From Alphaproteobacteria bacterium (GTDB lineage: Bacteria > Pseudomonadota > Alphaproteobacteria > Reyranellales > JAQSWP01), in contig JBBCJW010000025.1 of assembly GCA_037190765.1 (NCBI GenBank), positions 14,124 to 78,123 on the forward strand: a stretch of 64,000 bases of DNA, in the 5' to 3' direction. The notes below the pieces were generated by a model that worked only from the letters and a program-made list of their open reading frames with translations, was not told the DNA's origin and did no database searches. A program made the translations under genes and the position numbers. Below, piece after piece: positions 32,845 to 56,604 of the stretch. How positions within the stretch are numbered: the stretch's first letter is position 1; each line of letters opens with the position of its first letter.

Positions 32845-32952
32845 TGGCAGACAACAGAAAAGCGATGCGGCGTCGCAGCCGGTCTGCCGGATGGACGGAA
32901 TCCGTCGTTCGCAGCCTGACGCTGGGTGAAACGTCTTGAAGTCGGAGGGGAG

Positions 32953-34149
32953 ATGGGGCCGCTTGACGGGATAAAGATGATCGAGGTGGCCGCCATCGTC
33001 ATGGCGCCGTTCGCCAGCCAGATGCTGGGCGACATGGGGGCCGAAATCATCAAGGTCGAGCCGCCGGAGGGCGACAGCATCCGCGCCGTCGGCCCCATGC
33101 ATAGCCACGGCATGGGACCGATGTATTTCAACTCCAACCGCAACAAGCGCAGCATCGTGCTCGACCTGAAGAGGCCGCAGGGCCGGGAAGCGCTACTGCG
33201 TCTGGCGCGCGATGCCGATGCGCTGCTCTACAATGTCCGCCCGCAGGCGATGGCACGGCTGGGTCTGGCCTACGAGGATCTGAAACAGGTGAATCCGGGC
33301 CTGGTCTATGTCGGCGCCTTCGGATTCGGGCAGTCGGGTCCCTATGCGGCGCGTCCGGCCTTCGACGAGCTGATTCAGGGGCTGGTGGCGATTCCCAGCC
33401 TGATGGCCCGTTCCGGCAACGGCACGCCGCGCTACGTGCCGCTGGCCTTCATCGACCGCTATGTCGGCGTCCAGGTGGCTGCCTCGCTGCTCGCCGCCCT
33501 GCTGCACCGGCAGCGTACCGGCGAGGGGCAGGCGATCGAGGTGCCGATGCTGGAGGTGGCGGCCCAGCTCGTCCTGGCCGACCATATGGGCGGCGCCACC
33601 TACGATCCGCCGCTGGGTCCGGCCGGCTATCCCCGGTCGCTGGCGTCGGAGCGGCGTCCCTTCGCGACGCAGGACGGCTACATATGCGCCATGCTCTACA
33701 CGGACCGGCACTGGCGCAGCTTTCTCGATCTGGTCGGACGGCCCGAGCTGATGCAGGATTCGAGGTTCGGCACGCTCACCTCGCGCACCGTTCATGCGGG
33801 GGAGGTGCATGGAGCGCTGGAAGACATGCTGCGCACGCGCACCACGGCGGAATGGCTCGCCGCGTTCGAGAAGATCGACATTCCCGCCTTCCGGCTCAAT
33901 ACGCTGGAATCCCTGCTTGAAGACCCGCATCTGCAGGCCGTCGACATGTTCTCCTGGCACGAGCATCCTACCGAGGGACGCGTTCGCGCCGTGCGGCCGC
34001 CCACGACCTGGTCGCGCACACCGCCGTCGATCCGGCGCCTGCCGCCGCGCATCGGCGAGCACAGCGGCGAAATTCTCGCCGAAGCCGGCTATTCGCCGGA
34101 AGAAATCGCCGCACTCGCCGCCAACGGCGCCACCAGACTGGGAGATTGA
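32953..34149 (+). CDS. family-III CoA-transferase (CaiB/BaiF/Frc-like)
   Basis: MLGDMGAEIIKVEPPEGD and GFGQSGPYAARPAFDELIQG. Start MGPLDG follows GGAGGGG. About 70% identical to 46245..47453. Confidence 0.85.
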   Translation: MGPLDGIKMIEVAAIVMAPFASQMLGDMGAEIIKVEPPEGDSIRAVGPMHSHGMGPMYFNSNRNKRSIVLDLKRPQGREALLRLARDADALLYNVRPQAMARLGLAYEDLKQVNPGLVYVGAFGFGQSGPYAARPAFDELIQGLVAIPSLMARSGNGTPRYVPLAFIDRYVGVQVAASLLAALLHRQRTGEGQAIEVPMLEVAAQLVLADHMGGATYDPPLGPAGYPRSLASERRPFATQDGYICAMLYTDRHWRSFLDLVGRPELMQDSRFGTLTSRTVHAGEVHGALEDMLRTRTTAEWLAAFEKIDIPAFRLNTLESLLEDPHLQAVDMFSWHEHPTEGRVRAVRPPTTWSRTPPSIRRLPPRIGEHSGEILAEAGYSPEEIAALAANGATRLGD

Positions 34150-37045: not shown

Positions 37046-37074
37046 TTGATGACAAGTCAAACATTTGTTAGATT
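37046..37074 (+). promoter_or_regulatory. candidate promoter with shared 14-nt motif (site c)
   Basis: TTGATG, a 17-nt spacer, then TAGATT. The motif aacatttgttagat is at 37060-37073, flanked by the inverted repeat GACAAG (37051-37056) / CTTGTC (37075-37080). Confidence 0.5.
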
Positions 37075-37127
37075 TCTTGTCGGATGCAGCGACTTCAGAA
37101 TAAGTAATTGATATCAGGGAGGTTTTT

Positions 37128-38102
37128 ATGAAGCTGCTTGGTTTTGGAACCGCCTTGGCGGCGCTTTCGGTTGCTCTGCTTGGACAGCCTGCGAACGCTC
37201 AGAACTATCCGAACCGACCCATCACGATCGTGGTTCCGTCCGCGCCTGGGGGATTGTCGGACGGTTTCGTGCGGCTGGTCGGTGACAGCATACAGCGCAG
37301 TTGGGGCCAGCCGGTTGTCATGGAGCACCGTCCCGGCGCCGGTGGCATCGTGGGGACCCAACACGTCGTCGGCGCTAATCCCGATGGCTATACGCTGCTG
37401 ATGGGCAATATCGGTCCACTGGCGATCAATCCAGGGCTCTACAAGGAGCTGCCCTACGACGTGAACAGGCAACTGGCGCCTGTGGCGCTGGTGTCGGTCT
37501 ATCCCAACGTGCTGGTTGTCCATCCCAGCCTTCCGATCAACAGCATCGGCGACATGATCCGCTACGCCAAGGAGAAACCCGGCACTCTGAACTATGCGTC
37601 GGCTGGCGTCGGCCAGTCCCAGCACCTGTCGGGCGAAATGTTCCGCGTCATGGCCGATGTCGATATCGTGCACGTGATGTACCGGGGCACCGGTCCGGCG
37701 CTGGCCGATCTGGTCGGCGGGCATATCGAGATGATGTTCTCGAACGTTCCTGCCGCGGTTCCGTATATCCAGTCGGGCAGGCTGCGGGCCGTCGGAGTGA
37801 CCGGGCTTTCCCGCAGCAAGGCGCTTCCCGACGTGCCGACCATCGATGAATCGGGTGTCCCGGGCTACAATGTGATTTCGTGGCTGGCGCTGGTGGCGCC
37901 GGCGGGAACGCCGCCGGAGATCGTCGAACGCCTCAATGCCGAAGTGATCAAGGCGCTTGCCTCGCCGGAAGGGCAGAAGCATCTGGAGATGGTCGGCGCC
38001 GATGCCGGGACCGGTTCGCCTGCCGAATTCGGCAAGTTCCTTCTCGACGAGCAGAAAAAGTGGAGTGATCTGATCAAGAAGGCGAACATCCAGCAGCCCT
38101 GA
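37128..38102 (+). CDS. tctC: Bug-family TctC substrate-binding protein, adjacent to tctBA
   Basis: Signal peptide followed by QNYPNRPITIVVPSAPGG. It is the first gene of the operon that contains TctB and TctA. Confidence 0.85.
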   Translation: MKLLGFGTALAALSVALLGQPANAQNYPNRPITIVVPSAPGGLSDGFVRLVGDSIQRSWGQPVVMEHRPGAGGIVGTQHVVGANPDGYTLLMGNIGPLAINPGLYKELPYDVNRQLAPVALVSVYPNVLVVHPSLPINSIGDMIRYAKEKPGTLNYASAGVGQSQHLSGEMFRVMADVDIVHVMYRGTGPALADLVGGHIEMMFSNVPAAVPYIQSGRLRAVGVTGLSRSKALPDVPTIDESGVPGYNVISWLALVAPAGTPPEIVERLNAEVIKALASPEGQKHLEMVGADAGTGSPAEFGKFLLDEQKKWSDLIKKANIQQP

Positions 38103-38129
38103 TCCGCGATATAGCGGGATCGGTGCAGC

Positions 38130-39035
38130 ATGACCAGAACCATTGGCTTCATCGGGCTTGGCAACATGGGGCATCCCATGGCCATGCGCCTGGTAGGGGC
38201 GGGCTTCCGGGTCGTCGCCTGCGACCAGTCCGAAGCCAATCTCGAGCGAGCCGTGCAGGGCGGCGCAAGCCCTGCACGCTCCATCGCCGCAGCGGCGGGG
38301 GAAGCCGACCGTATCATCTGCATGGTGGGCACGACCGCGCAGACCGAAGAGGTGCTGTTCGGCAGCGATGGCGTTGCGGCGGCGGCGCGCCGGGGCAGCG
38401 TGGTGCTGTGCATGAACACCATCGAACCCTCGGCGGCACGTCGTTTCTTCGTCAGGCTGGCTGATCGCGGCATCGCGATGCTCGATGCGCCGGTCAGCGG
38501 CGGCACACCACGGGCCGCGGCGGGTACGCTGGTCGTGATGGCCGGCGGCGATGCCGGGATTTTCGAGGGCTGCCGCGACATTTTTGCGGCGATCGGCAAC
38601 GAATGGCGTCTGGTCGGTCCGGCCGGCTCCGGCATGGCGATGAAGCTGGTCAACAACATGCTGGCGCAGATCAACATCGTTGCCGTCTGCGAGGCATTCG
38701 TTCTGGCGGAACGGGCGGGACTTGATCTCGAGCTGATGTGCGAGATCGTGCGCGCCGGTACCGGGGACAGCGCGGCGTTCCGGGGGCGCGACCGCCGGTT
38801 GCTGGCGCGCGATTTCGTGCCGGGCGGTTCGGTCGACATCTGCCTCAAGGATCAGGAGCTGCAGACGGCGTTCGCGCATGAGCTGGGCATGCCGCTGATG
38901 GTCGCCAGCCTGACCAAGCAGATCTATCAGGCGGCGCACGCCGCCGGATACGGCAGCGAGGATGCCGGGGCGGTGATCAAGGTGTTCGAAGCGATGGCGG
39001 GTAAAGGAGTGCGGGGACCCGGCGTGACCGGGTGA
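38130..39035 (+). CDS. NAD(P)-dependent oxidoreductase, 3-hydroxyisobutyrate dehydrogenase (HIBADH) family
   Basis: IGFIGLGNMGHPMA, DAPVSGG and MKLVNN. Confidence 0.85.
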   Translation: MTRTIGFIGLGNMGHPMAMRLVGAGFRVVACDQSEANLERAVQGGASPARSIAAAAGEADRIICMVGTTAQTEEVLFGSDGVAAAARRGSVVLCMNTIEPSAARRFFVRLADRGIAMLDAPVSGGTPRAAAGTLVVMAGGDAGIFEGCRDIFAAIGNEWRLVGPAGSGMAMKLVNNMLAQINIVAVCEAFVLAERAGLDLELMCEIVRAGTGDSAAFRGRDRRLLARDFVPGGSVDICLKDQELQTAFAHELGMPLMVASLTKQIYQAAHAAGYGSEDAGAVIKVFEAMAGKGVRGPGVTG

Positions 39036-39053
39036 TGGCGAGGGGAATTTGCG

Positions 39054-39575
39054 ATGAGCATGGAAGAGACGGACAAGCCCGTCGATCGGACGGCAGTGGA
39101 TGAGCGGAAACATTCGATTCTGGCGCCGCGCGACCAGCGCGGCTTCGCGACGGGCGTCCTGCTGATGGCGCTGGGTATCGCGATGCTGGTCCTGGTCTGG
39201 TCCTATCCGGTCGGCACGGCGACCCGCATGGCGGCGGGATACTGGCCGCGCATCGTGGCCTATCTGTTGATCGGCGTCGGGTTTCTCAACGTCATCGTGG
39301 CCTATTTCGCGCACCGGCGCACCGAGGTGTCGCTGCCGCCGATGCGGCAGATGCTGCTGGTGCCGATCGGGATTCTGCTGTTCGGATTTACCGTCGAACG
39401 ACTGGGATTCATCATCGCCAGCGCCCTGTTGATCGGGGTAGCGGCGCTGGCAAGTCGGGAAAGCCGGCTGGTCGAGACCATCGTGCTGGCCGTCGGCTTG
39501 ATAACGTTCTGCAGCGTGCTGTTCGTGACCCTGCTCGGGCTGTCGATCAGACTCGTGCCGCCCGGAGTTTTCTGA
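39054..39575 (+). CDS. tctB: tripartite tricarboxylate transporter small membrane subunit TctB
   Basis: Protein of about 170 aa with 4 transmembrane segments, immediately upstream of and overlapping TctA (TGATG). Confidence 0.8.
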   Translation: MSMEETDKPVDRTAVDERKHSILAPRDQRGFATGVLLMALGIAMLVLVWSYPVGTATRMAAGYWPRIVAYLLIGVGFLNVIVAYFAHRRTEVSLPPMRQMLLVPIGILLFGFTVERLGFIIASALLIGVAALASRESRLVETIVLAVGLITFCSVLFVTLLGLSIRLVPPGVF

Positions 39576-41077
39576 TGGTTGACGTATTCGACAAGCTGAT
39601 GCTGGGTCTCGGCGTCGCGCTGACGCCGATGAATGCCCTGTTCGTGTTCGTCGGGGCGCTGCTTGGAACGTTGATCGGCGTGCTGCCGGGTATCGGCCCC
39701 GTCGCGACCCTGGCCATGCTCATTCCGATCACCTATTACCTCGAGCCGACCACCGCGATCATCATGCTGGCCGGCATCTATTACGGCGCCCAGTATGGCG
39801 GCTCGACCACCGCGATCCTGGTCAACATGCCGGGCGAGAGCTCCTCGGTCGTGACCTGTCTCGACGGTCACCAGATGGCGCGGCAGGGACGCGCCGGTTC
39901 CGCGCTCGCCATTGCGGCCATCGGCTCGCTGTTCGCCGGCGTCGTCGCCACCTTCCTCATCGCCTTCGCCGGCCCCACCCTTGCCGATGTCGCGCTGAGT
40001 TTCGGGCCGGCGGAATACTTCTCCCTGATGGTGTTCGGCCTGGTGGCTGCGATCATTCTGGCGCACGGTTCGATCCTGCGCGCTTTCGGCATGATGGTGC
40101 TGGGGCTGGCGCTGGGGATCGTCGGCACCGACGTCAATACCGGCGCGCAGCGGCTGGCGTTCGGGATCCCGTCGCTGGTCGATGGTATCGACTTCGTGTC
40201 GTTCGCCATCGGCCTGTTCGCGATTCCCGAGATCATGCGCAATCTGGAGAATCCCGAGGGCCGTTCGGTGCTGGCGCAGAAGATCAGCAGGTTGTGGCCG
40301 ACCCGGCAGGAGTTCCGTCAGGCGACGCCGGCGATCATGCGCGGCACCGTGGTGGGATCGATCCTCGGCGTTCTGCCCGGTGGCGGTGCGCTGCTCAGTT
40401 CGTTCGCCGCCTACATGACGGAAAAGCGCGTCGCCAAGGACCCTTCCCGGTTCGGCAAGGGGGCGATCGAAGGCGTGGCCGGGCCCGAATCGGCCAACAA
40501 TGCCGGCGCGCAAACCTCGTTCATACCGCTGCTCACCATGGGCATTCCCAGCAACGTGGTGATGGCGCTGCTGGCCGGCGCGCTCACCATCCAGGGCATT
40601 CAGCCCGGCCCCGAGATCATCACCAAGCAGCCGGCGCTGTTCTGGGGGCTGATCGCCAGCATGCTGGTCGGCAACGTGATGCTGCTGGTGATCAACCTGC
40701 CGATGATCGGCGTCTGGGTGAAGCTGCTGAAGATCCCCTATCGGCTGCTCTATCCCAGCATCCTGCTGTTCTGCTGCGTCGGCGTCTACACGGTGAACAA
40801 CAATACGTTCGACCTGGTGCAGCTCGTCGCCTTCTCCCTCCTCGGCATGATCCTGTGGCGGCTGGACTGCGAGCCGGCGCCGATGGTTCTCGCCTTCCTG
40901 CTGGGGCCGCTGATGGAGGAGAATCTGCGCCGCGCCCTGCTGCTGTCGCGCGGCGACCCCTCCACCTTCATCGACCGGCCGATCAGCCTCGGCCTGCTGC
41001 TGTGCGCCGCCGGGCTGCTTGTGCTGGTGCTGCTGCCGTTCGTGCGGCGAAAGCGGGAGGTCGCGTTTGCCGAGTAG
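39575..41077 (+). CDS. tctA: tripartite tricarboxylate transporter large permease TctA
   Basis: 500-aa polytopic protein with GVLPGIGP and GESSS motifs typical of TctA. Confidence 0.9.
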   Translation: MVDVFDKLMLGLGVALTPMNALFVFVGALLGTLIGVLPGIGPVATLAMLIPITYYLEPTTAIIMLAGIYYGAQYGGSTTAILVNMPGESSSVVTCLDGHQMARQGRAGSALAIAAIGSLFAGVVATFLIAFAGPTLADVALSFGPAEYFSLMVFGLVAAIILAHGSILRAFGMMVLGLALGIVGTDVNTGAQRLAFGIPSLVDGIDFVSFAIGLFAIPEIMRNLENPEGRSVLAQKISRLWPTRQEFRQATPAIMRGTVVGSILGVLPGGGALLSSFAAYMTEKRVAKDPSRFGKGAIEGVAGPESANNAGAQTSFIPLLTMGIPSNVVMALLAGALTIQGIQPGPEIITKQPALFWGLIASMLVGNVMLLVINLPMIGVWVKLLKIPYRLLYPSILLFCCVGVYTVNNNTFDLVQLVAFSLLGMILWRLDCEPAPMVLAFLLGPLMEENLRRALLLSRGDPSTFIDRPISLGLLLCAAGLLVLVLLPFVRRKREVAFAE

Positions 41078-45318: not shown

Positions 45319-46119
45319 ATGATTGATTCGAACCAGAGACGAGTCAAGGGCGAGACGCGCCCTGAGCCCGTGATTCGCGCCCTTTTGCGGGGGCTGGACA
45401 TCATCGAAGCCATGAGCGGCCAATATGAGGGGATGAGCCTGTCGCAGGTGGCGGAGGCCGTCGGACTGGATCGCGCCACGGCCAGGCGCTTTCTGCTTAC
45501 CTTGCTCAACAAGGGCTATCTGAGACAGGACGGCCGCAAGTTCTTTCTCGCGCCCAGGATTCTGAACCTGGGATATGCCTATCTGGCGTCCAGTCCGCTG
45601 CGCGAGATTGCGTTCCCCTATCTCAAACAGGTGGCGGAAACGACGCAACAGGGATGCTCGCTGGGCATTCTGGACGGCGACGAGGCGCTTTACCTGGGAA
45701 GCGTACAGAGCGCGTCGCGGATCGTGGCCCGTCAGATCGGCGCCGGGGTCAGGCTTCCTACCTATTGCACGTCCATCGGCCGCATTCTTTTGGGAAGCCT
45801 GACGGCGGAGGAACTGAAAGCCCATTCCACGCGCGTCCCGATCGTCCGGCATACGGTCCATACCAAGACGCACTGGCGGGATGTTTTCGCGGCCGTCGAA
45901 CAGGGGCGTGCCCAGGGCTGGATATTCGTCGACCAGGAGGTCGAGGACGGTCTGCGCTCGATCGCCGTCCCGATCCGCGACCGGGACTCGAAGATCATTG
46001 CCGGCATGAACGTCAGCGCGCTGGCCAGCCGTCTCGACGCGAAGGCCGATATAGCCAGATCCTTGAAGATTCTGCAGCGTGCCGCGGCGGGCATCGAACA
46101 GGCATTGCGCTTGCGCTGA
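45319..46119 (+). CDS. IclR-family transcriptional regulator (PcaR/PobR-like)
   Basis: IRALLRGLDIIEAM...LSQVAEAVGLDRATARRFLLTL, plus a C-terminal effector domain. Confidence 0.85.
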   Translation: MIDSNQRRVKGETRPEPVIRALLRGLDIIEAMSGQYEGMSLSQVAEAVGLDRATARRFLLTLLNKGYLRQDGRKFFLAPRILNLGYAYLASSPLREIAFPYLKQVAETTQQGCSLGILDGDEALYLGSVQSASRIVARQIGAGVRLPTYCTSIGRILLGSLTAEELKAHSTRVPIVRHTVHTKTHWRDVFAAVEQGRAQGWIFVDQEVEDGLRSIAVPIRDRDSKIIAGMNVSALASRLDAKADIARSLKILQRAAAGIEQALRLR

Positions 46120-46244
46120 CCGGGTCCGATCCGCCATGCCGTGGCGGCGAGTTCCCCGAACGGAATCACGGATGGCCGTGCGGCACCCTGATGGCGTGCC
46201 CGGGATGCGGTGCCGCGATCGGCGCTCCCGAAGCATCGTTCCGT

Positions 46245-47453
46245 TCACTCTTTCATTGTGGTGTCCGCCAGCGTAATCCCGGCCTCCAGGAGGGCGGCAA
46301 TCTCGTCTTTCGAATAGCCCGCCTCGCCCAGGATCTCGACGCTGTGCTCGCCCAGCCGCGGCGGCAGGCGCCGCACGCTCAACGGCGTCTGCGACCATTT
46401 GCTGGGCGGCCGGGTCATGCGCACCCGGCCTTCGCTGGGATGATCGACCCAGTGGAAAAAACCGATCGCCTTCAGATGCGGGTCTTCGGGCAGCGATTCC
46501 AGCGTATGCAGCGGCGTCGCCGGGATATCGGCCGTCTCGAACGCCTGCAGCCAGGCGGCGGTCGACCGCTGGCGCAGCTCGTCTTCGAGCATGGCGTGGA
46601 TCTCGCGCGCATGCTCGGTCCGGACGGTGATGGAGGCGAAGCGCGGATCCTGCATCATCTGCGGCTTGCCGATCAGGTCGAAGAAGCTGCGCCAGTGCCG
46701 GTCGGTGTAGATCATGGCGCAGACATAGCCGTCGCTGGTCTCGAACGGATGGCGTTCGGGCGCCAGGGAGCGCGGATAGCCGGGAGGGCCCAATGGCGGA
46801 TCGAAAGTGTGGCCGCCGGAATGGTCGGCGGCCACGAACTGCACCAGCGTTTCGAACATCGGCACTTCGATCGCCTGACCCTTGCCGGTGCGCAGCTTGT
46901 GGACCAGGCCGCCCAGGATGGCGTTGGCCACCGTGGCGCCGACATAGCGGTCGACGAACGCGATCGGCACGTAGCGCGGCACGCCGTCGCCGACGCGGGC
47001 GACCAGGCTGGGGACCGAGGAAATGCCCTGGATCAGGTCGTCGAAGGCCGGCCGCGCCGCATACGGTCCGTCCTGGCCGAAACCGAAGGCGCCGACATAG
47101 ACCAGCCCCGGATTGACGGCCTGCAGGTCCGACCACGCCAGGCCCAGCCGCTGCATGGCCTGCGGCCGCACGTTGTAGAGCAGCGCGTCGGCATCCCGCG
47201 CCAGGCGCAGCAGCGCTTCGCGCCCCTTGGGATGCTTGAGATCGAGCACGATGCTGCGCTTGTTGCGGTTGGAGTGGAAATAGAGAGGCCCCATGCCGGG
47301 CGAGCGCATCGGGCCGACGCCGCGCATGTTGTCGCCCGACGGCGGTTCGACCTTGATCACCTCCGCTCCCATGTCGCCCAGCAACTGGCCGGCGAAGGGA
47401 CCCATGAGGATCGACGACACGTCGATCACCTTGACGCCATCAAGTGCGCCCAT
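46245..47453 (-). CDS. family-III CoA-transferase (paralogue of 32953..34149)
   Basis: MGALDGVKVIDV...LLGDMGAEVIKVEPPSGD. ATG 47453 follows GGAGAG; the ORF opens two codons earlier at TTG 47459. Confidence 0.85.
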   Translation of the reverse strand: MGALDGVKVIDVSSILMGPFAGQLLGDMGAEVIKVEPPSGDNMRGVGPMRSPGMGPLYFHSNRNKRSIVLDLKHPKGREALLRLARDADALLYNVRPQAMQRLGLAWSDLQAVNPGLVYVGAFGFGQDGPYAARPAFDDLIQGISSVPSLVARVGDGVPRYVPIAFVDRYVGATVANAILGGLVHKLRTGKGQAIEVPMFETLVQFVAADHSGGHTFDPPLGPPGYPRSLAPERHPFETSDGYVCAMIYTDRHWRSFFDLIGKPQMMQDPRFASITVRTEHAREIHAMLEDELRQRSTAAWLQAFETADIPATPLHTLESLPEDPHLKAIGFFHWVDHPSEGRVRMTRPPSKWSQTPLSVRRLPPRLGEHSVEILGEAGYSKDEIAALLEAGITLADTTMKE

Positions 47454-47495
47454 TGGCAACTCTCCATTTCCTCCCGGGGTCCGCTTTGACGCGGT

Positions 47496-48296
47496 TCACC
47501 ACTTCTGCCACTTGCGGAACTGCGGCTTGCGCTTCTCCATGAACGCCTTGACGCCTTCGCGCGATTCGTCGGTGTCGTAGAACAGGCTGAGCGCCTGCAG
47601 GCCCAGGCTGCCGATGCCGCGAATGTGCTCGGTCGAGGCGTTGAACGAGCGCTTGGCGACGGCCAGCGCGGTCGGGCTCTTCTCCAGGATCTCGTTGCAC
47701 CAGCGCTCGACTTCCGCGTCGAGCTCCTCGTGCGGCACCACCTTGTTGATCAGCCCCATCTGGAAAGCTTCCTGGGCGGTGTAGCGGCGGCACAGATACC
47801 AGATCTCGCGCGCCCGCTTTTCGCCGACGAGATTGGCGAGATAGGCGGTGCCCCAGCCGGGATCGACCGAACCGACCCTGGGGCCGGCCTGGCCGAAGCT
47901 GGCCTTCTCCGAGGCGATCGTCAGGTCGCACAGCGTGACGATGACGTTGCCGCCGCCGATGGCGTAGCCCTGCACGCGGGCGATGACGGGTTTGGGCGCA
48001 TCCCGGATCGAGGTATGCAGCTCCTCGATCGGCTGGCCGATCGTGCCGCGGCCGTCATACTGGCCTGTGTGTGTGCTCTGGTCGCCGCCGGTGCAGAAGG
48101 CGCGATCGCCGGCGCCGGCAAGCACGATGACGCCGATGCTTTTGTCCCAGGATGCCTTGGTGATGGCGTGGATCAGCTCTTCGACGGTCTGCCCGCGGAA
48201 GGCGTTCAGAACCTGCGGCCGGTTGATCGTGATGCGCGCCACGCCGTCGGCGGTTTCGTAGACGATGTCTTCGTACTTCATGATCGTCTTATCCAT
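47496..48296 (-). CDS. MenB/BadI-subfamily crotonase, 2-ketocyclohexanecarboxyl-CoA hydrolase (BadI)-like
   Basis: GDRAFCTGGDQS, GPRVGSVDPGWG and C-terminus DESREGVKAFMEKRKPQF. Its start overlaps the stop of the upstream SDR gene by 8 nt. Confidence 0.7.
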   Translation of the reverse strand: MDKTIMKYEDIVYETADGVARITINRPQVLNAFRGQTVEELIHAITKASWDKSIGVIVLAGAGDRAFCTGGDQSTHTGQYDGRGTIGQPIEELHTSIRDAPKPVIARVQGYAIGGGNVIVTLCDLTIASEKASFGQAGPRVGSVDPGWGTAYLANLVGEKRAREIWYLCRRYTAQEAFQMGLINKVVPHEELDAEVERWCNEILEKSPTALAVAKRSFNASTEHIRGIGSLGLQALSLFYDTDESREGVKAFMEKRKPQFRKWQKW

Positions 48297-49050
48297 GCAT
48301 GGTCAGGCCGCCGGAGACGCTGATCGTCTGGCCGGTGATGAAATTGGCGTCTTCGCTCGCCAGGAAGGCGACGATCCCGGGATAGTCGTCGGGTTCGCCC
48401 AGCCGGCGCAGGGGGATCGAGCGCTTCAGGCCTTCGCGGATCTTCGGGCCGAGGCCCTCCGTGCCGATGAACGATTCGAAAAGCGGCGTGTCGGTGGGGC
48501 CCGGGCAGACGGTGTTCAGCCTGATATTGCTGCGGGCCAGCTCGCGCGCCATGGTCTTGGTGAAGGCGATGACCCCGCCCTTGCACGCCGAGTACACCGC
48601 TTCGCCGGACGAGCCGACGCGGCCGGCGTCGGAGGCGATATTGACCACCTTGCCGTAGTTGCGCTTCAGCATGATGGGCAGAACCGCATAATGCATGTTC
48701 AGCGCGCCGTAGAGGTTGATGTCGACCACCTTCTTCCAGAAGGCGAAGTCGGAATCGAGGAAGGGCAGGGCCTTGTCCCATCCGACGTTGTTGATGAGGA
48801 TGTCGACGCCGCCAAACCGCTCTTCGACCGCCTTCACGCCCTGGGCCACCGCGTCGTAGTCGGTTATGTCGCATTTCACGGCCAGACCGGCCCCCGGGGA
48901 CATCTTGGCGACGGTTTCCTGCGCTCCCGCCTCGTTGATGTCGAACACGCCGACATTGCAGCCTTCGTCCGCCAGGCGCAGCGAAATCGCCCGGCCAATG
49001 CCGCTGCCGCCGCCGGTCACGATTGCGGTTTTCCCCGTTAAGCCCCTCAT
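48289..49050 (-). CDS. SDR, 2-hydroxycyclohexanecarboxyl-CoA dehydrogenase (BadH)-like
   Basis: VTGGGSGIG, NNVGWD, IASDAGRVGSSGEAVYSACKGG, CPGPTDTP and SVSGGLTMHG. SD AAGGAG. Confidence 0.7.
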   Translation of the reverse strand: MRGLTGKTAIVTGGGSGIGRAISLRLADEGCNVGVFDINEAGAQETVAKMSPGAGLAVKCDITDYDAVAQGVKAVEERFGGVDILINNVGWDKALPFLDSDFAFWKKVVDINLYGALNMHYAVLPIMLKRNYGKVVNIASDAGRVGSSGEAVYSACKGGVIAFTKTMARELARSNIRLNTVCPGPTDTPLFESFIGTEGLGPKIREGLKRSIPLRRLGEPDDYPGIVAFLASEDANFITGQTISVSGGLTMHG

Positions 49051-49123
49051 ACAAAACTCCTTTTTGTGGTAGGAACATCTACCCGGAACAGTTGATCGAC
49101 ACGCATTGGGAGCGCCTCTACCA

Positions 49124-49155
49124 AATGATAGTTAGAAACCAAACATTAGTTAGAA
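49124..49155 (+). promoter_or_regulatory. two tandem copies of the shared 14-nt motif (sites d1 and d2), 18 bp apart
   Basis: aatgatagttagaa at 49124-49137 and aacattagttagaa at 49142-49155. They lie in the divergent region between the BadH-like operon and a TetR gene. Confidence 0.55.
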
Positions 49156-49187
49156 AACGCAGGTCGCGCAAGACTGCCGCGGCGGCC

Positions 49188-49829
49188 ATGCCGGCCAATC
49201 CGCCGAGCGTAAGAACGCGTTCGAGAGCGGAAATATCGAGGGAGCAGGTGCTTCTGGGAGCCGCGAAGCTGATGCGCAAGCAAGGGTACGACGCTACCAC
49301 CTTGCGGCAGATTGCAGCCGCGGTCGGCATCAAGGCGGGTAGCATCTACTACCACTTTCGCTCGAAAGAGGAGATTCTCGACGCCGTGCTCGACCTGGGG
49401 ATCACGACGGTCCATGACGCGGTCCGCCGCGAGGTCATGGCCCTGGGGCCCAACGCGTCGGCGCGGGCGCGCATCGAGGTTGCGATCCGCACCCATCTTC
49501 AGGCGTTGTTCGAGCATGGCGACTACGCCTCGGTAAATATGCGCATCTACGGCCTTCTGCCCGAGGATGTGCGGTTGCGGAACATGCGGCGTCGCGAAGC
49601 CTACGCCGACTATTGGGACGAACTGTTCAGGGCCGCCGAAGAGCAGAACCTGATACGGCATAAATTCAGTCCCAGGGTCATTCGCCTGATCCTGATCGGT
49701 GCGCTGAATTGGACGGTCGAGTGGTTCGATCCCCGCAAGGGTCCGGTCGAAAACATTGCCGAGACTTTCAGTTCGATGATCTTCGATGGGCTGATGCCGG
49801 CGAACGTGGAACGGAAATCGAAGAAATAG
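49188..49829 (+). CDS. TetR/AcrR family transcriptional regulator
   Basis: HTH GYDATTLRQIAAAVGIKAGSIYYHFRSKEEIL. The reading frame opens at 49023 and the first in-frame ATG I considered is 49125. That ATG lies inside motif d1, so I prefer ATG 49188; the start is uncertain. Confidence 0.8.
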   Translation: MPANPPSVRTRSRAEISREQVLLGAAKLMRKQGYDATTLRQIAAAVGIKAGSIYYHFRSKEEILDAVLDLGITTVHDAVRREVMALGPNASARARIEVAIRTHLQALFEHGDYASVNMRIYGLLPEDVRLRNMRRREAYADYWDELFRAAEEQNLIRHKFSPRVIRLILIGALNWTVEWFDPRKGPVENIAETFSSMIFDGLMPANVERKSKK

Positions 49830-49837
49830 CGGCTGGT

Positions 49838-50620
49838 TCAGCGCGGCATCGCCAGCCGCGAGCCGCCGTCGACGAACATGATCTCGCCGGTGACGCTGCG
49901 CGCGTGCTCCACCAGCCAGGTGATCGGATCGGCGATGTCGTCGGGGGTGCTGACGCGCGCCAGCGGCGAGTTGGCCTTGTAGCGCTCGGCCACCGCCTGT
50001 GCCCCGTCCTGGCCGTATCCCCTGCGCACCCACGGCGTGTCGACATAGCCGGGCATTACCGCGTTCACCCTGATCTCCGGCCCCAGGACACGGGCCAGGG
50101 AGAGGGTGACGCTGTTCAGGGCGGCCTTGGAGGCGGCATAGGCGATGGATGAGCCCGTTCCGAGAAACGAAGCGATCGACGAAACGTTGACGATGGCGCC
50201 GTTGCCGCTGGCGCGCAGCGCGGGGGCGCAGGCTTTCGACATCTGGAAGGCGGCGACCACGTTGGTGCGGTAGATGCGCAGGAAATCCTCGCCGTCCAAT
50301 CCGTCGAGATCGGCGTGCTTCACCGCTTTGGTCGTGCCGGCATTGTTCACCAGCGCATCGATCCGGCCCCATTTCTCCAGCGTCCGGTTCACCAGCGCCA
50401 GGCAATCCTCGTTGTTCGACACGTCCGCCTGCATCGCTGCGGCGACGCCTCCGGCCCTGCGGCAGGCCTCGGCGGTCTCCTCTGCGCCGGCGGCGCTGCT
50501 CGCGAAGTTCACCGCTATGTGCCAACCGCTGCGGGCAAGGCGCAGCGCGGTCGCCGCGCCAATGCCCGAGGATGCGCCGGTGATGACGGCGACCCGCCCG
50601 TTCACTTCCTGTGTGCTCAC
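49838..50620 (-). CDS. SDR family oxidoreductase
   Basis: ITGASSGIG and catalytic YAASKAAL. Confidence 0.85.
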   Translation of the reverse strand: MSTQEVNGRVAVITGASSGIGAATALRLARSGWHIAVNFASSAAGAEETAEACRRAGGVAAAMQADVSNNEDCLALVNRTLEKWGRIDALVNNAGTTKAVKHADLDGLDGEDFLRIYRTNVVAAFQMSKACAPALRASGNGAIVNVSSIASFLGTGSSIAYAASKAALNSVTLSLARVLGPEIRVNAVMPGYVDTPWVRRGYGQDGAQAVAERYKANSPLARVSTPDDIADPITWLVEHARSVTGEIMFVDGGSRLAMPR

Positions 50621-51786
50621 TGTGTTTTCCTTCCCGATCCGCCGCGGCGTTTCCCTTCAGTCCCCGCACGGGCTTCGCCGAGGACTTCCTCCGTATGCTG
50701 GCCCAGCGCGGGCGGTTCGCGTGGAACCGTGTGGTCGCGCTGCGGCAATCCCGGAAAACGCAGATAGGAGAAGCCGCCGGCATCGGCGAACAGGTTGCGT
50801 GCCGCAAGCTGCGGATGGCGGCGGATGTCGCCCAGTTCCGATACCAGCGAGGCGGGAATGTCGTGCCCGGCGAAATCCTGGAGCAGGCTCTCCAGGCTGC
50901 GCGCGGCAATGGCTGCCGACAGGCGCTCCTGCAGCAACTCCGTGTGCTTCAGCCGGTCGGTAAAGCGTCGATAGGGCCCGTCGGCCAGCTCCGGCATGTC
51001 GAGCGCGCGCACCAGCGCCTGCCAGAAATGGTCCTCGACCGCACCCAGCGCAATCTGCTTGCCGTCGGCGGTGGTGTAAACGCCATTGCCCGGCCGGTTC
51101 AGTATGTCGCCCCGCGACAGCGCGCCGGCATGCTGCAGCGTGCCGTAGCGGGCGGCCACCATCGGCAGCAGACAATCGGCGATGGCGATGTCGATGAACT
51201 GGCCCTTGCCGGTCGCATCGCGGCTGCGCAGCGCGGCCAGCACCGAAATGACGGCGGCCATGCTGGCGCTGACATCGGCTATGGGGAAGGCAACGGCATA
51301 GGAGGGAGGGCCGTCCGGTGCGCCGCACAGCGACAGCGCGCCCGAAGCGGCCATGTAGTTGATGTCATGCCCCGGCACGTCGCGATAGGGGCCGCTCTGG
51401 CCGTAACCGGACAGCGAAACGTAGACCAGCCCGCCATTCCTCCGCGTCAGCGCTTCGTATCCGATGCCCAGCTTGTCGGCGACGCCGGGCCTGAACCCCT
51501 CGATCAGCACGTCCGCCGTTGCGACCAGGTCCAGCAGCGCGGCCAGGCCCGCTTCGGTCTTCAGATCGAGGCAAACGCTTTTCTTGTCGCGATTGGCGAT
51601 CCTGAAAATGCCGGGAAAGGTGGTGCGCACGATGTCTCCGGTCGGCCGCTCCACCTTGATGACCTCCGCCCCCAGATCCGACAGGATCAGGGCGGCGTAG
51701 GGGCCGGGGAGCTGCTCTCCCAGGTCGAGCACGCGAATGCCCTGCAGCGGCTTCGGCGCAGCGCCGGCGGTATGGCTATCCGTCAT
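50617..51786 (-). CDS. family-III CoA-transferase fold protein, alpha-methylacyl-CoA racemase (MCR)-like
   Basis: ILSDLGAEVIKVERP, EGFRPGVADKLGIGY and SGYGQSGPYRDVPGHDINY (GHDINY as in mycobacterial MCR). Confidence 0.8.
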   Translation of the reverse strand: MTDSHTAGAAPKPLQGIRVLDLGEQLPGPYAALILSDLGAEVIKVERPTGDIVRTTFPGIFRIANRDKKSVCLDLKTEAGLAALLDLVATADVLIEGFRPGVADKLGIGYEALTRRNGGLVYVSLSGYGQSGPYRDVPGHDINYMAASGALSLCGAPDGPPSYAVAFPIADVSASMAAVISVLAALRSRDATGKGQFIDIAIADCLLPMVAARYGTLQHAGALSRGDILNRPGNGVYTTADGKQIALGAVEDHFWQALVRALDMPELADGPYRRFTDRLKHTELLQERLSAAIAARSLESLLQDFAGHDIPASLVSELGDIRRHPQLAARNLFADAGGFSYLRFPGLPQRDHTVPREPPALGQHTEEVLGEARAGTEGKRRGGSGRKTQ

Positions 51787-51789
51787 TGC

Positions 51790-52617
51790 TCAGTCCGCCG
51801 GTACGAAATTCGGCTTGCGCCGCTCGACGAAAGCGGAAAGCCCCTCGGAGACCGCCTTGCCTTGCAGCAGATCGACAGCCAGATCGGTTTCCATGCCCAG
51901 ACCCTGATCAAGGGACATTTCGCAGCCATTGCGCGCCAGCTTCTTCATTGCCGCAAGACCTTCGGGGCTGTAGCCGGCCAGCATGGTGCAGTATTGCATG
52001 GCTTCGGACATCAGGGCCGCATCGTCGACCAGATAGTTCACCAGCCCCCATTGATAGGCGGTTTCTCCGTCAAGCCAGCGGCCGGACAGGAAGAGGTCGA
52101 GCGCGCGGCGCAGGCCGATGATTTTGGGCAGGCGCTGGCTGCCGCCCCAGCCGGGCAGCAGGCCGAAGCGGGCATGCTGGTCGCCGATGCGTGCTGAACG
52201 GGCGCAGAAAACCACGTCGCAGGCCAGCATCATCTCCAGGCCGCCCGCCAGGCAAAGTCCCTGTACGGCCGCGACAACGGGCAGACGGCTGGTTTCGAAG
52301 CGCCGCTGCAGCGATATCCCGTTCTCCAGGAAGTGGCGCAGAATAGCTGGATCGTTGCGTTTGTGTTCGACATCGGCGAGATCGGCGCCGGCGCTGAAAC
52401 TGCTTCCCCTGGCGCACAGCAATACGACACCGATGGTTGAAGAGGCTTCGAACCGGTCCAGTCCTTCGTGCAAGCGATCGATCACATCGCCGGAGAGGCA
52501 GTTATGCTTGTCCGGCCGGTTGAGTTCGAGAATGCCGATGCGGCCTTCGACCTTTGTCAGGACAGGCGATTGCTGCGCGCTCACCACGATGCCTCGTTCG
52601 TTTGCCCGAAGGACCAT
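51790..52617 (-). CDS. enoyl-CoA hydratase/isomerase
   Basis: ELNRPDKHN, FSAGADL and GLSAFVERRKPNF. Confidence 0.85.
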   Translation of the reverse strand: MVLRANERGIVVSAQQSPVLTKVEGRIGILELNRPDKHNCLSGDVIDRLHEGLDRFEASSTIGVVLLCARGSSFSAGADLADVEHKRNDPAILRHFLENGISLQRRFETSRLPVVAAVQGLCLAGGLEMMLACDVVFCARSARIGDQHARFGLLPGWGGSQRLPKIIGLRRALDLFLSGRWLDGETAYQWGLVNYLVDDAALMSEAMQYCTMLAGYSPEGLAAMKKLARNGCEMSLDQGLGMETDLAVDLLQGKAVSEGLSAFVERRKPNFVPAD

Positions 52618-52650
52618 GCCAACTTCGCGAAAACGATAACGATGCGCGGT

Positions 52651-52679
52651 TTACAAAACAAGCGAACATTAGTTAGAAT
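52651..52679 (+). promoter_or_regulatory. candidate promoter with shared 14-nt motif (site e)
   Basis: TTACAA, a 17-nt spacer, then TAGAAT. The motif aacattagttagaa at 52665-52678 is identical to site d2. The inverted repeat GAACA...TGTTC flanks it. Confidence 0.55.
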
Positions 52680-52710
52680 TTGTTCATAGCGCCTATCCAA
52701 AGGAAAAAGC

Positions 52711-53871
52711 ATGGAATTTCTCGATCCGTCTTTCGAGCGCCCGGTGTTTTCGGCGGCATCGAAGCAATTGCGCGCCGAGGTGAGGAAGTTCCTGCAGGAA
52801 GAACGCGAAGCGGGGAACTTCACGCCGATCTGCAATGCCTGGGTCGAGGGATTCTCCAGCGAGTTCAGCCAGAAGCTGGGCGCGCGCGGGTGGATCGGCC
52901 ATCACTGGCCGAAACGTTATGGCGGGAACGAAGGCACCGCTTACGACACCTTCATCATCAATGAGGAACTGCTGGCCGCCGGCGCGCCGGTCAACGCGCA
53001 CTGGACCGCCGCCCGCCAGTCCGGCCCGGTGATCATGCGCTATGCCAGCGAGGACATCCGGCTGAAATTCCTGCCGGAAATCGCGGCCGGCCGGCTCTAT
53101 TTCGCGATCGGGCTGAGCGAGCCCGATTCGGGTTCGGATCTGGCCTCCGTGCGCACCAGGGCCCGGCAGGACGGGAAATACTGGCGCATCACCGGACGCA
53201 AGATCTGGACGACATCGGCCCATCGTTGCCAGTGGATGATCGTGCTGTGCCGCACCTCGCCGCTGGAAGAGGGCGGCCGCCACCACGGTCTCACCCAGTT
53301 CATCGTCGATCTCAAGAGCGAGGGCGTCAGCATCCGCCCCATCCTGGCGCTGGACGGCAGCCATCATTTCAACGAGGTGCTGTTCGAGGACGTCGAGGTT
53401 CCCGAGGAGCTGATGCTGGGCAACCCGGGCGACGCCTGGCGACAGGTTTCCAGCGAACTGGCCTATGAACGCAGCGGTCCGGAACGGTTCCTGAGTTCGC
53501 TGCCGTTTCTGGACGAGTTCCTGCGCACGGTCGGCCAAAGCGGCGATCGCCACACCAACCTGAACCTGGGCCGGATGATCGCCCGGCTGGTGGTGCTGCG
53601 CGGCATGAGCCTGGGCATTGCCGGCTCGCTGAACAAGGGCAATGCGCCCGATACGGAAGCCGCGCTGGTGAAGGGGCTGGGCAGCGCCTTCGAGCGCGAG
53701 ACGATCGAGGCGGTGCGCGGCCTGGCCGGCGAGCTGATCGACCGTCCGGAGAATGCCGCCCTGCGCGCGCGCTTCCGCGAGGCGCTGTTCTCGGCGCCGA
53801 CCTACACGATCCGGGGCGGCACCAACGAGATTCTCCGCAACATCGTCGCCAAGAGGCTGAAGCTGTCATGA
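52711..53871 (+). CDS. acyl-CoA dehydrogenase, putative alpha subunit of a heteromeric pair
   Basis: Full three-domain ACAD of 386 aa. The C-terminal motif reads IRGGTNEIL, with no Glu at the YEG position. There is an IVD-type Glu candidate in ELAYERSG. Confidence 0.85.
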   Translation: MEFLDPSFERPVFSAASKQLRAEVRKFLQEEREAGNFTPICNAWVEGFSSEFSQKLGARGWIGHHWPKRYGGNEGTAYDTFIINEELLAAGAPVNAHWTAARQSGPVIMRYASEDIRLKFLPEIAAGRLYFAIGLSEPDSGSDLASVRTRARQDGKYWRITGRKIWTTSAHRCQWMIVLCRTSPLEEGGRHHGLTQFIVDLKSEGVSIRPILALDGSHHFNEVLFEDVEVPEELMLGNPGDAWRQVSSELAYERSGPERFLSSLPFLDEFLRTVGQSGDRHTNLNLGRMIARLVVLRGMSLGIAGSLNKGNAPDTEAALVKGLGSAFERETIEAVRGLAGELIDRPENAALRARFREALFSAPTYTIRGGTNEILRNIVAKRLKLS

Positions 53872-54929
53872 GTGAACTTGCGCAGATGCTGTACGACACT
53901 GCAGGCCGGCTGTTCGCCGATGCCAGTACGGCAGACCTGATCAACGCGGCGGAGAACGGGGAGTGGCCCGAAGCGCTCTGGGCCAAGCTGGAGGAGCTGG
54001 GGCTATTGGATGTCCTCGAGGAGGAAGCCGCCGATGGCGGCGGCGGATCGTGGGCGGACGTCGCCGCGCTGCTGCGACGGGTCGGCGAATACAGCGTTCC
54101 GCTGCCGGTCGCCGAGACGATCCTGGCCCGCTGGCTGGCGAAGCAGGCCGGCCTGTCGCTGCCGGCGGGGCCGGCCAGTTTGGCCCTGATCGAGCATCCG
54201 GCGGCGCTGCACGCCGAGGGCGCCGGCTGGAGGCTGGACGCCCCGCTGGCCGGGGTCGCCTGGGGGCGTATTGCCAAATCGGTGGTGGTGGCCTTCGAGA
54301 TCGATGGCGTGCTGCGCGCCGGCCTGCTGCCCGTCGCCAGCGCAAGCGAAGGCCGGTCGGTCGCCGGCGAGCCGCGCGACACGCTGGTCCCGGCCGCAAC
54401 CGCTTTCCAGGCCGGCACTCTGACCGGCATATCCCTGGACGAGGTGCGGTCGGTCGGGGCGCTGACGCGGGTGGCGATGATGACCGGCGCCCTGCAGCGC
54501 GCCATGGCGCTGTCGATCCGCTACGCCAACGAGCGTTCGCAGTTCGGCCGCTCGCTGTTCGCGTTCCAGGCGATCCAGCATCATCTGGCGCAGATCGCCG
54601 AGGAGACCTGCGCCGCGGCCGTGGCGCTCGAGCTGGCTGCGGGCAATTACAGCGACAGCCGCGCCACGATGAATATCGCGGCGGCAAAGGTCCGGGTGGG
54701 CGAGGCGGCCGGCAAGGTCGCCGCCCTGGCGCATCAGATCCATGGCGCCATGGGCGTGACCTACGAGCATACGTTGCACCACAGCACGCGGCGGCTTTGG
54801 GCCTGGCGGGACGAGTATGGCCGGGAGGACGACTGGGCGTTGCGGCTCTGGCACGCCGCCGCGCCGGAACTCGGCGCCGGCGTCTGGCCGCTTGTCGTCA
54901 GCGCCACCAGCCGCGAAGCTGCCGGCTAG
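53868..54929 (+). CDS. acyl-CoA dehydrogenase family protein, putative beta subunit
   Basis: ATGA overlap with the upstream ACAD gene. 353 aa. The C-terminal ACAD domain has GVTYEHTLHHSTRRLWAW and no YEG-type base. Confidence 0.8.
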   Translation: MSELAQMLYDTAGRLFADASTADLINAAENGEWPEALWAKLEELGLLDVLEEEAADGGGGSWADVAALLRRVGEYSVPLPVAETILARWLAKQAGLSLPAGPASLALIEHPAALHAEGAGWRLDAPLAGVAWGRIAKSVVVAFEIDGVLRAGLLPVASASEGRSVAGEPRDTLVPAATAFQAGTLTGISLDEVRSVGALTRVAMMTGALQRAMALSIRYANERSQFGRSLFAFQAIQHHLAQIAEETCAAAVALELAAGNYSDSRATMNIAAAKVRVGEAAGKVAALAHQIHGAMGVTYEHTLHHSTRRLWAWRDEYGREDDWALRLWHAAAPELGAGVWPLVVSATSREAAG

Positions 54930-54978
54930 ATCGACAACGAGGCATGCCCGGCATCGGGTTTCGGGAGAGAACGACAGC

Positions 54979-55767
54979 ATGAGCGATTACAAGACGATAC
55001 TGTTCGACGTGGCGCCGGATACCGGCGTCGCCTGCCTGACGCTGAACCGGCCGGACAGATTCAACGCCTTCAACAAGGAAATGGTCGGCGAATGGCGCGA
55101 CGTGTTGGGCCGGGTCGAGCGCGACGTTTCCATTCGCGCCCTGGTCCTCACCGGCAAGGGCAAGGCGTTCTGCGCCGGTGGCGATATCGACGAGCTGGAA
55201 TCGTTCCTGACCATGAGCGCGCTGGAGCGCAAGCAGTTCCTCTGGGACAATGTGCACCAGATTCCGCTGGCGCTCGAGCGCATCGATTGCCCGGTCATCG
55301 CCGCACTGAACGGCACGGCGCGCGGCGCGGGGCTGGACATGGCGCTGATGTGCGATCTGCGGGTGATGGACAGGTCGGTGGTGCTGGCGGAAAGCTATAT
55401 TGCGATGGGCCTGATGCCCGGCGACGGCGGCAGCTACTTCCTGCCGCGTCTGGTTGGTGTGCCGCGCGCGCTGGAACTGCTGTGGACCGGAGCAGACATC
55501 ACGGCCGAAACCGCCGAGCGCATCGGTCTGGTCAACCAGGTGACGGCGGACGGCACTTGCGTCGAGGAGGCGATCAAGCTGGCGACGCGCATCGCCCGCC
55601 AGCCGACCCATGCCATACGGTTCACCAAGCGTGCGGTCTATCAGGGACAGACCGGCGATCTGCGCGGCCATCTCGACATGGTATCCTCGCATATGTCGGT
55701 GCTGGAGGACATGCCGGACTTCCGGGCCCGCGTCGAGGCGTTCAAGAAGAGGCGACAGAAGGCTTAG
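54979..55767 (+). CDS. enoyl-CoA hydratase/isomerase
   Basis: TLNRPDRFNA, FCAGGD and RVEAFKKRR. SD GGGAGAG. Confidence 0.85.
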   Translation: MSDYKTILFDVAPDTGVACLTLNRPDRFNAFNKEMVGEWRDVLGRVERDVSIRALVLTGKGKAFCAGGDIDELESFLTMSALERKQFLWDNVHQIPLALERIDCPVIAALNGTARGAGLDMALMCDLRVMDRSVVLAESYIAMGLMPGDGGSYFLPRLVGVPRALELLWTGADITAETAERIGLVNQVTADGTCVEEAIKLATRIARQPTHAIRFTKRAVYQGQTGDLRGHLDMVSSHMSVLEDMPDFRARVEAFKKRRQKA

Positions 55768-55783
55768 ATGCTGGTGGAACGAC

Positions 55784-56560
55784 ATGCAGCTTGAGCTTGG
55801 AGGAAAGTGCGGCATCGTCACGGGAGCCAGTCGCGGCATCGGGCGCGCCATCGCGCTCGCCCTGGCACGCGAAGGCATGCGGCTGGCACTGGTGGCGCGC
55901 GCCAGCGACGTACTCGACGATGCCGTCCGGCAGACTGGTTCTGCCGACGCTTTTGCGATCGGCTGCGATCTGCGTCAGGCTGCGGCGCCTGCCGCCGCCG
56001 TAGAAGCCACGCTCGCCCGTTTCGGCGCCATCGACGTGCTGGTCAATTGCGCCGGGGCAACCAAGCGCGGCGACTTCCTAGCGCTGACCGACGAGGAGTG
56101 GAGCGACGGCTTCGCGCTCAAGTTCCATGCCGCCATGCGCATGAGCCGGGCCGCCTGGCCAGCGCTCTGCGCTAGCCGGGGAACCATCGTCAACATCATT
56201 GGCGTCGGCGGTCGCGTGGCCTCGGCCGAGTTCAGCATTGGCGGCGCCGTCAACTCGGCCCTGATCAACCTGACCAAAAGCCTGGCCGACCGCGGCGTTC
56301 GCGACGGCGTGCGGGTCAATGCGGTCAATCCGGGCGGCATTGCGACCGATCGCTGGCGCAACCGGGTCAATGTGGCTGCCGAGAGAAACCGAACCACCCC
56401 TGCCCAGGCGGAGGAACTGCTGGTGCAGGAGATGGGCGTCGCCTCGATCGGCACGCCGGAGAATATCGCCGATGTCGTGGCCTTCATGGCCAGTCCGCGC
56501 GCCGCCTACATGCAGGGCGCCGTGGTCGATGTCGATGGAGGCATGGTTCGCGCCCTTTAG
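55784..56560 (+). CDS. SDR-fold protein lacking the canonical Ser-Tyr-Lys catalytic residues
   Basis: VTGASRGIG is present, but no YxxxK occurs anywhere in the protein. The active-site region reads NIIGVGGRVASAEFSIGGAVNSALINLTK. Confidence 0.75.
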   Translation: MQLELGGKCGIVTGASRGIGRAIALALAREGMRLALVARASDVLDDAVRQTGSADAFAIGCDLRQAAAPAAAVEATLARFGAIDVLVNCAGATKRGDFLALTDEEWSDGFALKFHAAMRMSRAAWPALCASRGTIVNIIGVGGRVASAEFSIGGAVNSALINLTKSLADRGVRDGVRVNAVNPGGIATDRWRNRVNVAAERNRTTPAQAEELLVQEMGVASIGTPENIADVVAFMASPRAAYMQGAVVDVDGGMVRAL

Positions 56561-56604
56561 ACAGCGCATGAGTCTTGCGGTCCTCGGTTCCGGGAGGTGA
56601 TGAA

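Follow-up and report, generated by a model that had tools for sequence, protein, structure and literature searches.

The 64,000-nucleotide stretch of DNA analysed here (the window), from a Reyranellaceae-like soil bacterium, carries on its minus strand a three-gene operon. It encodes, in the order of reading, a BadH-like, predicted NAD-type short-chain dehydrogenase/reductase (SDR) of 253 amino acids (48289..49050), a predicted 2-ketocyclohexanecarboxyl-CoA hydrolase of the BadI family (47496..48296) and, as the last gene, a family-III (CaiB/BaiF/Frc) coenzyme A (CoA)-transferase (46245..47459). A TetR-family regulator with TetR_N and TetR_C_24 domains is encoded divergently on the plus strand; its longest open reading frame spans 49023..49829, and its true start is probably at 49125 or 49188. 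The combination of badHI with a family-III CoA-transferase, where an ATP-dependent ligase would be usual, is rare, yet it alters a well-known, widespread pathway only modestly.

GC content at third codon positions is 0.87-0.90 in all three minus-strand open reading frames, so they are considered real genes. The next gene downstream of the transferase is a convergent IclR regulator gene, which confines the operon to three genes. In agreement with the initial annotation, the Pfam assignments and this convergent gene delimit an operon that holds a family-III CoA-transferase and lacks a ligase, an acyl-CoA dehydrogenase (ACAD) and a hydratase. The protein motifs listed there were likewise recovered, NNVGWD, SSGEAVYSACKGG, CPGPTDTP and SVSGGLTMHG in the translation of 48289..49050 (-), and AFCTGGDQS, GPRVGSVDPGWG and DESREGVKAFMEKRKPQF in that of 47496..48296 (-). 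The annotated overlap of 8 nucleotides between the SDR and crotonase genes (ATGGATAA) results when the crotonase is started at ATG 48296 (266 amino acids); the start in all of its homologues corresponds to the second ATG, 48281 (MKYEDIVY), which gives instead a 7-nucleotide gap and probably a protein of 261 amino acids. The two genes are tightly coupled under either choice. The spacer of 42 nucleotides before the transferase is correct for a start at ATG 47453, and an in-frame TTG at 47459 lies nearer to the GGAGG box. A scan of 45900..49400 for consensus promoters and terminators found none, such a scan being uninformative in DNA of 65% GC.

The crotonase, which also matches Pfam ECH_1, was scored against the NCBIfam equivalog of BadI, TIGR03210; it reached 470.6 bits over the complete profile (1-256 of 256), above the cut-off of 467.6, and a six-frame search of the genome gave 470.2 bits. 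Both MenB equivalogs scored it below their cut-offs (350.4 against 380 bits, and 320.9 against 342.7 bits). When a maximum-likelihood tree of 44 sequences was built, as the initial annotation had proposed for the crotonase, MenB of E. coli and S. aureus was split from all BadI-like proteins with a support of 100/99. The window protein was placed inside the BadI radiation, in a clade (97/95) with a congener, a metagenome contig protein (L113) and P0008; it groups with the BadI proteins linked to bad-ali clusters, away from MenB and from the Mrc-like KH32C/Sphingopyxis clade. In this tree, cluster-linked BadI proteins of pBN3, Marinobacter and KH32C stood in for R. palustris BadI and C. defragrans MrcE.

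The residues at the active site point in the same direction. In an alignment with E. coli MenB, GSVDPG and LFYDTDE of the crotonase correspond to GSFDGG and LFYMTEE, with Ser, Asp and Tyr kept; GSVDPG is of the BadI type, the MenB counterpart being GSFDGG or GSFDAG, and relative to MenB a BadI-type deletion follows DQS. Counted from the second ATG, the catalytic-position Ser, Asp and Tyr are 138, 140 and 235, reportedly the numbers of these residues in R. palustris BadI (Eberhard and Gerlt 2004). The crotonase is 64-79% identical to the BadI proteins of bad-ali clusters and only 27-32% identical to the ordinary hydratases of the window. A MenD profile search of the genome, which is 99.6% complete, gave at best 58 bits against a cut-off of 244, and no MenD was found. 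By its profile scores, its motifs and its place in the tree the crotonase is a BadI-family enzyme, as had been claimed. An identity as MenB was rejected on the MenB cut-offs, the tree and the missing MenD, and a steroid ring-D hydrolase of the EchA20 type was rejected because EchA20 is only 24% identical to BadI (PMC5380842). A search of the PDB returned no BadI structure, MenB entries being nearest, and no exact match of the window BadI was found in public assemblies.

Other members of the subfamily were also recorded. Two divergent MenB/BadI-subfamily crotonases, C25:12650-13420 to the left of the window (L004) and C69:9668-10417 (L003), score about 240 bits on both models. In place of the GS-x-D motif they show GSSPV and GSPAA, without the Asp, and they may catalyse a different reaction. 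A further BadI homologue (P0070, loci L007-L011; 77% identity) is present in 403 blocks of the assembly collection, where it forms part of a MarR / BadI / ACAD unit that is surrounded by housekeeping genes and lacks an adjacent BadH, ligase or transferase gene.

The SDR finds its best NCBIfam match in TIGR03206 (BadH), with 332.3 bits, the cut-off of 431.2 not being reached; Pfam assigns it to adh_short_C2. It carries TGGGSGIG, NNVG and the catalytic Ser, Tyr and Lys of S..YxxxK, and the Asp in VFDIN suggests that NAD would be its cofactor. Its identity to BadH is 54-62% in bad-ali-type clusters, 71% in contig L113 and 93% in the congener G003. The gene lies directly upstream of badI and is coupled to it, and the badH-badI order is the same in pBN3, Marinobacter, KH32C and relatives of the order. 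The designation as BadH-like is thus borne out by the best family match and by the position before badI, but not by the equivalog cut-off. The most BadH-like SDR of the genome (368 bits, above the operon SDR) is C11:81334-82101; together with a PRK07327-type crotonase (455 bits) it forms a two-gene unit, C11:81334-82939 (L102), far from both BadI genes of the genome.

The transferase matches PF02515 (CoA_transf_3) over its full length, with 355.9 bits on profile positions 1-366, and its Asp170 (AFVD) corresponds in alignment to the active-site Asp of SUGCT (PDB 9br6), which lies in AMTD. It reaches no NCBIfam equivalog, the best being succinate-glutarate CoA-transferase with 229 against 750 bits. 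The genome has 37 family-III transferase genes; the protein is 71% identical to the window paralogue at 32926..34149, and 33% to the second transferase next to the operon (operon A, below). The relatives of its subfamily (64-71% identity) adjoin hydratase, SDR and TctC uptake genes, not BadI. As they have no ring-opening neighbour, they would hardly act on a ring-opened product, and their likeliest role is the activation of the imported acid. Carried over from the contexts of these relatives to the badHI operon, the comparison favours the same role here; read from this context, the transferase would be the starter of the pathway. In line with a predicted start without ligation, an AliA profile search of the genome gave at best 314 against a cut-off of 792 bits, and no AliA-type ligase was found. 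When 185,579 species genomes were scanned for the transferase, none of the 80 nearest loci (at most 60% identity) had BadI or BadH as a neighbour; linkage to BadI is therefore not general for this transferase clade. The paralogue at 32926..34149 has a 97% identical orthologue on a Logan contig (L148), which shares with the window the gene order MaoC, TctC, hydratase (ECH) / transferase, SDR, TctC, SnoaL, TctC, HIBADH, TctB, TctA.

The unit of TetR, BadH-like, BadI and transferase genes was found only in the window genome, in the congener G003 (98% BadI identity) and on the metagenome contig L113, where the identities are 74% for TetR, 71% for BadH, 84% for BadI and 77% for the transferase. TetR keeps the same position in both and is 90% identical in G003. 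On L113, badH, badI and the CoA-transferase gene are followed directly by an SDR gene and by TctC-HIBADH-TctB-TctA, with a copy of the motif described below in front of TctC. A block of 10.3 kb (46279..56600), comprising transferase, BadI, BadH, TetR and operons A and B, is shared only with G003 among seven other genomes of the family, at 89% nucleotide identity, and is accordingly regarded as accessory; no mobility genes were seen at its edges. A survey of 138 genomes from the order showed BadH-BadI-AliB as the prevailing arrangement, and BadI relatives at 75-79% identity stand in other contexts, without the transferase.

The same genome has a second BadI cluster at C72:6441-10748 (L099), which consists of genes for TetR, a BadI paralogue, an AliB-like ACAD, an enoyl-CoA hydratase and an SDR. 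This BadI scores 441 bits on the BadI model and is 66% identical to the window copy, and the ACAD, the only AliB-like gene of the genome, scores 539 against 575 bits on TIGR03207. All six genomes of the genus have a cluster of this type, which belongs to the genus core, unlike the window copy. The initial annotation had placed the ring-cleavage partners elsewhere in the window; ACAD and hydratase partners are not confined to it, since the C72 cluster has them too.

Two further operons adjoin the badHI operon. Operon A (49838..52617, minus strand) encodes an enoyl-CoA hydratase (51790..52617), a second family-III CoA-transferase (50617..51786) and an SDR (49838..50620), as assigned by Pfam and NCBIfam; it is syntenic in G003 and partly so on L113. 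Operon B (52711..56560, plus strand; Pfam) encodes a two-subunit ACAD (52711..53871 and 53868..54929), a hydratase (in 54817..55767) and an SDR (in 55610..56560). Its large ACAD subunit is closest to PimC, a weak match of 180 against 624 bits. The two ACAD genes overlap within 52711-54929, and the second, devoid of the Pfam middle domain and of any NCBIfam match, resembles the heteromeric ACADs (PimCD, steroid FadE pairs). Beyond the transferase end of the operon lie IclR, TauD-like, cupin, TctC, HIBADH-like, TctA and TctB genes; a candidate uptake system on the plus strand (37060..41077) comprises a motif copy (37060..37073), TctC (37128..38102), a HIBADH-like dehydrogenase (38130..39035), TctB (39054..39575) and TctA (39575..41077).

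The 14-nucleotide motif AAYRWTWGTTWGAW occurs in the window at 5 sites under strict matching and at 7 when one mismatch is allowed; about 0.1 would be expected. All 7 sites fall within 30.0-62.1 kb, the strict ones being at 37060, 49124, 49142, 52665 and 62077. Two direct copies (AATGATAGTTAGAA and AACATTAGTTAGAA) stand between badH and the TetR gene (49124..49155, +), and an exact copy of AACATTAGTTAGAA stands between operons A and B (52665..52678, +). The sites precede TetR/badH, the ACAD operon with operon A, and the TctC-HIBADH-TctB-TctA operon; further sites precede an SDR gene, a MaoC hydratase-TctC pair and a hydratase / CoA-transferase divergon. None of the 7 sites is near the AMP-ligase genes of the window, so the annotated presence of partner paralogues under a common motif stands for the ACAD, hydratase and SDR operons but not for the ligases. 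The whole 4.85-Mb genome has only 6 strict matches, 5 of them in the window; the sixth (C68:7792) is at the 5' end of a paralogous TetR gene (C68:7093-7788, 43% identical). The motif, which looks like a candidate autoregulatory operator of a TetR subfamily, is kept at the same places in G003, and on L113 it precedes TetR/badH as well as TctC. Every copy is oriented like its downstream gene, and the motif includes a TAGAAT-like hexamer; for these reasons it may overlap a -10 region.

The closest known counterpart is the bad-ali pathway of Rhodopseudomonas palustris, Aromatoleum sp. CIB (PMC9795900) and plasmid pBN3 of Paraburkholderia aromaticivorans (L103), a pathway which is both aerobic and anaerobic and widespread, including many Burkholderiales (PMC9795900). 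The adjacency and order of badH and badI are the same, the pBN3 proteins being 72% (BadI) and 54% (BadH) identical to those of the window; the predicted chemistry, from a 2-hydroxy to a 2-keto compound and on to hydrolytic ring opening, is equal, and a repressor is divergently encoded in both. However, no aliA, aliB or MarR-type BadR gene occurs in or beside the window operon, badK is absent from it as well, and a family-III CoA-transferase takes part in the predicted same transcription unit. The regulator is a TetR instead of the MarR-type BadR, and the candidate operator core is AAC-N4-GTT here, against CAA-N4-TTG.

Clusters of badKHI without aliAB and badR are also known and have been proposed to serve monoterpenes (PMC9795900), and MrcDEF of Castellaniella defragrans are BadK/H/I-like (PMC4109377). 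In these clusters (C. defragrans, PMC4109377; Azoarcus sp. KH32C pAZKH, L104), BadH/BadI-type pairs without aliAB lie in catabolic islands with ACADs and MaoC hydratases. They differ in the use of the ligase GeoC, which is acetoacetate-CoA-ligase-like, and of a fused hydratase, and the KH32C protein, which belongs to another clade, shares only 64% identity with the window BadI. Activation of cyclohexanecarboxylate by succinyl-CoA-dependent CoA transfer is described for Geobacter metallireducens (Kung et al. 2014, as cited in PMC9795900). According to that description, the alicyclic acid is likewise activated by CoA transfer rather than by ATP-dependent ligation, but the route proceeds via cyclohexa-1,5-diene-1-carboxyl-CoA into the benzoyl-CoA pathway and not through BadH/BadI. 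SUGCT (PDB 9br6), Frc/YfdW, CaiB and BbsEF share with the window transferase the full-length CoA_transf_3 fold and the catalytic Asp; the identity is only about 30-35%, and none of the NCBIfam equivalog cut-offs is reached.

These observations can be put together in a scheme to which we attach about an even chance, namely that a TetR-controlled accessory operon of three genes serves to activate an alicyclic acid by the transferase, to oxidise it by the BadH-like enzyme and to open its ring by BadI. The family-III transferase would initially move CoA from a donor thioester to an alicyclic carboxylic acid, probably taken up by the nearby TctCBA transporter, without ATP and without an AliA-type ligase. 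From a saturated or unsaturated acid, the 2-hydroxy CoA ester would be made by the ACAD and hydratases of operons A and B, which share the motif and are presumably co-regulated by TetR; for an acid that is already 2-hydroxylated, the three operon genes would suffice. The BadH-like, putatively NAD-dependent SDR would then turn the 2-hydroxy-cycloalkane-1-carboxyl-CoA into its 2-keto form, and the BadI-family crotonase would open the ring by hydrolysis (reverse Dieckmann) to a dicarboxyl-CoA of the pimeloyl-CoA type.

Several points weigh against this scheme. The BadI cut-off is cleared by 3 bits only, and the SDR stays 99 bits under that of BadH. The proposed monoterpene-ring hydrolase MrcE can scarcely be distinguished in sequence from BadI (88% identity to the BadI of Azoarcus KH32C, PMC4109377), and a plain and a substituted ring can therefore not be told apart from the sequence of the crotonase. 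The transferase gene is the last one, after BadI, and its best named relatives (SUGCT, succinate-glutarate) use dicarboxylates, which fits a role on the product too. The link between transferase and BadI is seen in three sequences only, two of them from congeners. The motif copies all point to TetR, ACAD or TctC genes and none to badH, and the C72 cluster of BadI and AliB-like genes may be the main route for cyclohexanecarboxylate.

The order SDR, BadI, transferase would also suit a transferase acting after ring opening, which shifts CoA between the carboxyls of a (substituted) pimeloyl-CoA for beta-oxidation, or hands it to the next substrate; activation would then fall to another enzyme, or a closed CoA cycle would operate. 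The characterised relatives of the transferase, SUGCT 9br6 (E 1e-57) and the succinate-glutarate and succinyl-CoA:mesaconate transferases, use dicarboxylates, and family III includes the intramolecular mesaconyl-CoA transferase Mct (PMC9813914). For ThnP, a family I enzyme, it is proven that CoA moves intramolecularly on an alicyclic dicarboxyl-CoA (PMC11659651), and canonical bad-ali clusters often hold a gene of the acetyl-CoA hydrolase/transferase family despite AliA. A similarity of about 35% to dicarboxylate enzymes, however, carries little information on specificity, the genome has no AliA-type ligase, and the nearest subfamily members (64-71%) sit with hydratase, SDR and TctC genes and no ring-opening enzyme, where no dicarboxyl-CoA product is expected. 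A post-opening role is thus judged unlikely, though by no means negligible. Far less credible, and in our estimation very improbable, is that the crotonase is no ring hydrolase at all, the triad being an ordinary hydratase / CoA-transferase / SDR module of beta-oxidation or the crotonase a MenB. The composition of crotonase fold, CoA_transf_3 and SDR does resemble the hydratase-CoA-transferase-SDR modules at 49838..52617 and in relatives, and the narrow pass of the BadI cut-off would suit it; against it stand the far higher identity to bad-ali BadIs than to the window hydratases, the BadI-type GSVDPG and deletion, the separation of MenB in the tree and the absence of MenD.

The same mechanism may also act on another substrate, and this seems a sizeable possibility, if short of probable: a substituted or bicyclic ring acid (monoterpenoid, naphthenic) or the product of a Baeyer-Villiger monooxygenase and a lactonase, cyclohexanecarboxylate being left to the C72 cluster. 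Such a division would agree with there being two BadI paralogues (66% identical), of which the C72 copy, with its AliB-like ACAD, is genus-core and the window copy accessory, and with a window rich in lactonase, esterase, luciferase-like monooxygenase, two-subunit ACAD and SnoaL genes; the proposal of monoterpenes for badKHI clusters without aliAB (PMC9795900), and likewise for MrcDEF (PMC4109377), has the same tendency. On the other hand, the window BadI falls outside the Mrc-like KH32C/Sphingopyxis clade and scores above the C72 copy on the BadI model (470 against 441 bits), and the analysis turned up no gene specific to terpenes (for example for a limonene dehydrogenase or a perillate ligase). 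A closed, ATP-free cycle that needs no more than the three operon genes is also conceivable, with rather little probability, in which the transferase passes CoA from the ring-opened dicarboxyl-CoA to the next imported 2-hydroxy-alicyclic acid, and BadH and BadI remake the donor. The ring opening of hydroxylated alicyclic acids, for instance hydroxylated naphthenic acids or those arising from Baeyer-Villiger/lactonase action, would in that event be driven by a catalytic amount of CoA thioester and would release the free dicarboxylate.

The new element is that badHI and a family-III transferase are tightly coupled under a TetR regulator, in an arrangement that is conserved and part of a putative TctC-linked and ligase-free regulon. 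The gain is incremental, as BadHI without aliAB and, in another pathway, the activation of cyclohexanecarboxylate by a CoA-transferase have already been described. Alicyclic acids such as cyclohexanecarboxylate, naphthenic and terpenoid acids are common pollutants as well as natural products, and among the known oxygen-independent ways of opening alicyclic rings the bad-ali route is the principal one. If activation by the transferase as proposed above is true, the ligase-free version of this route would save ATP, and one or more of the very many unannotated CaiB/BaiF-type transferases found alongside TctC (Bug) uptake proteins in soil Proteobacteria would gain a function.

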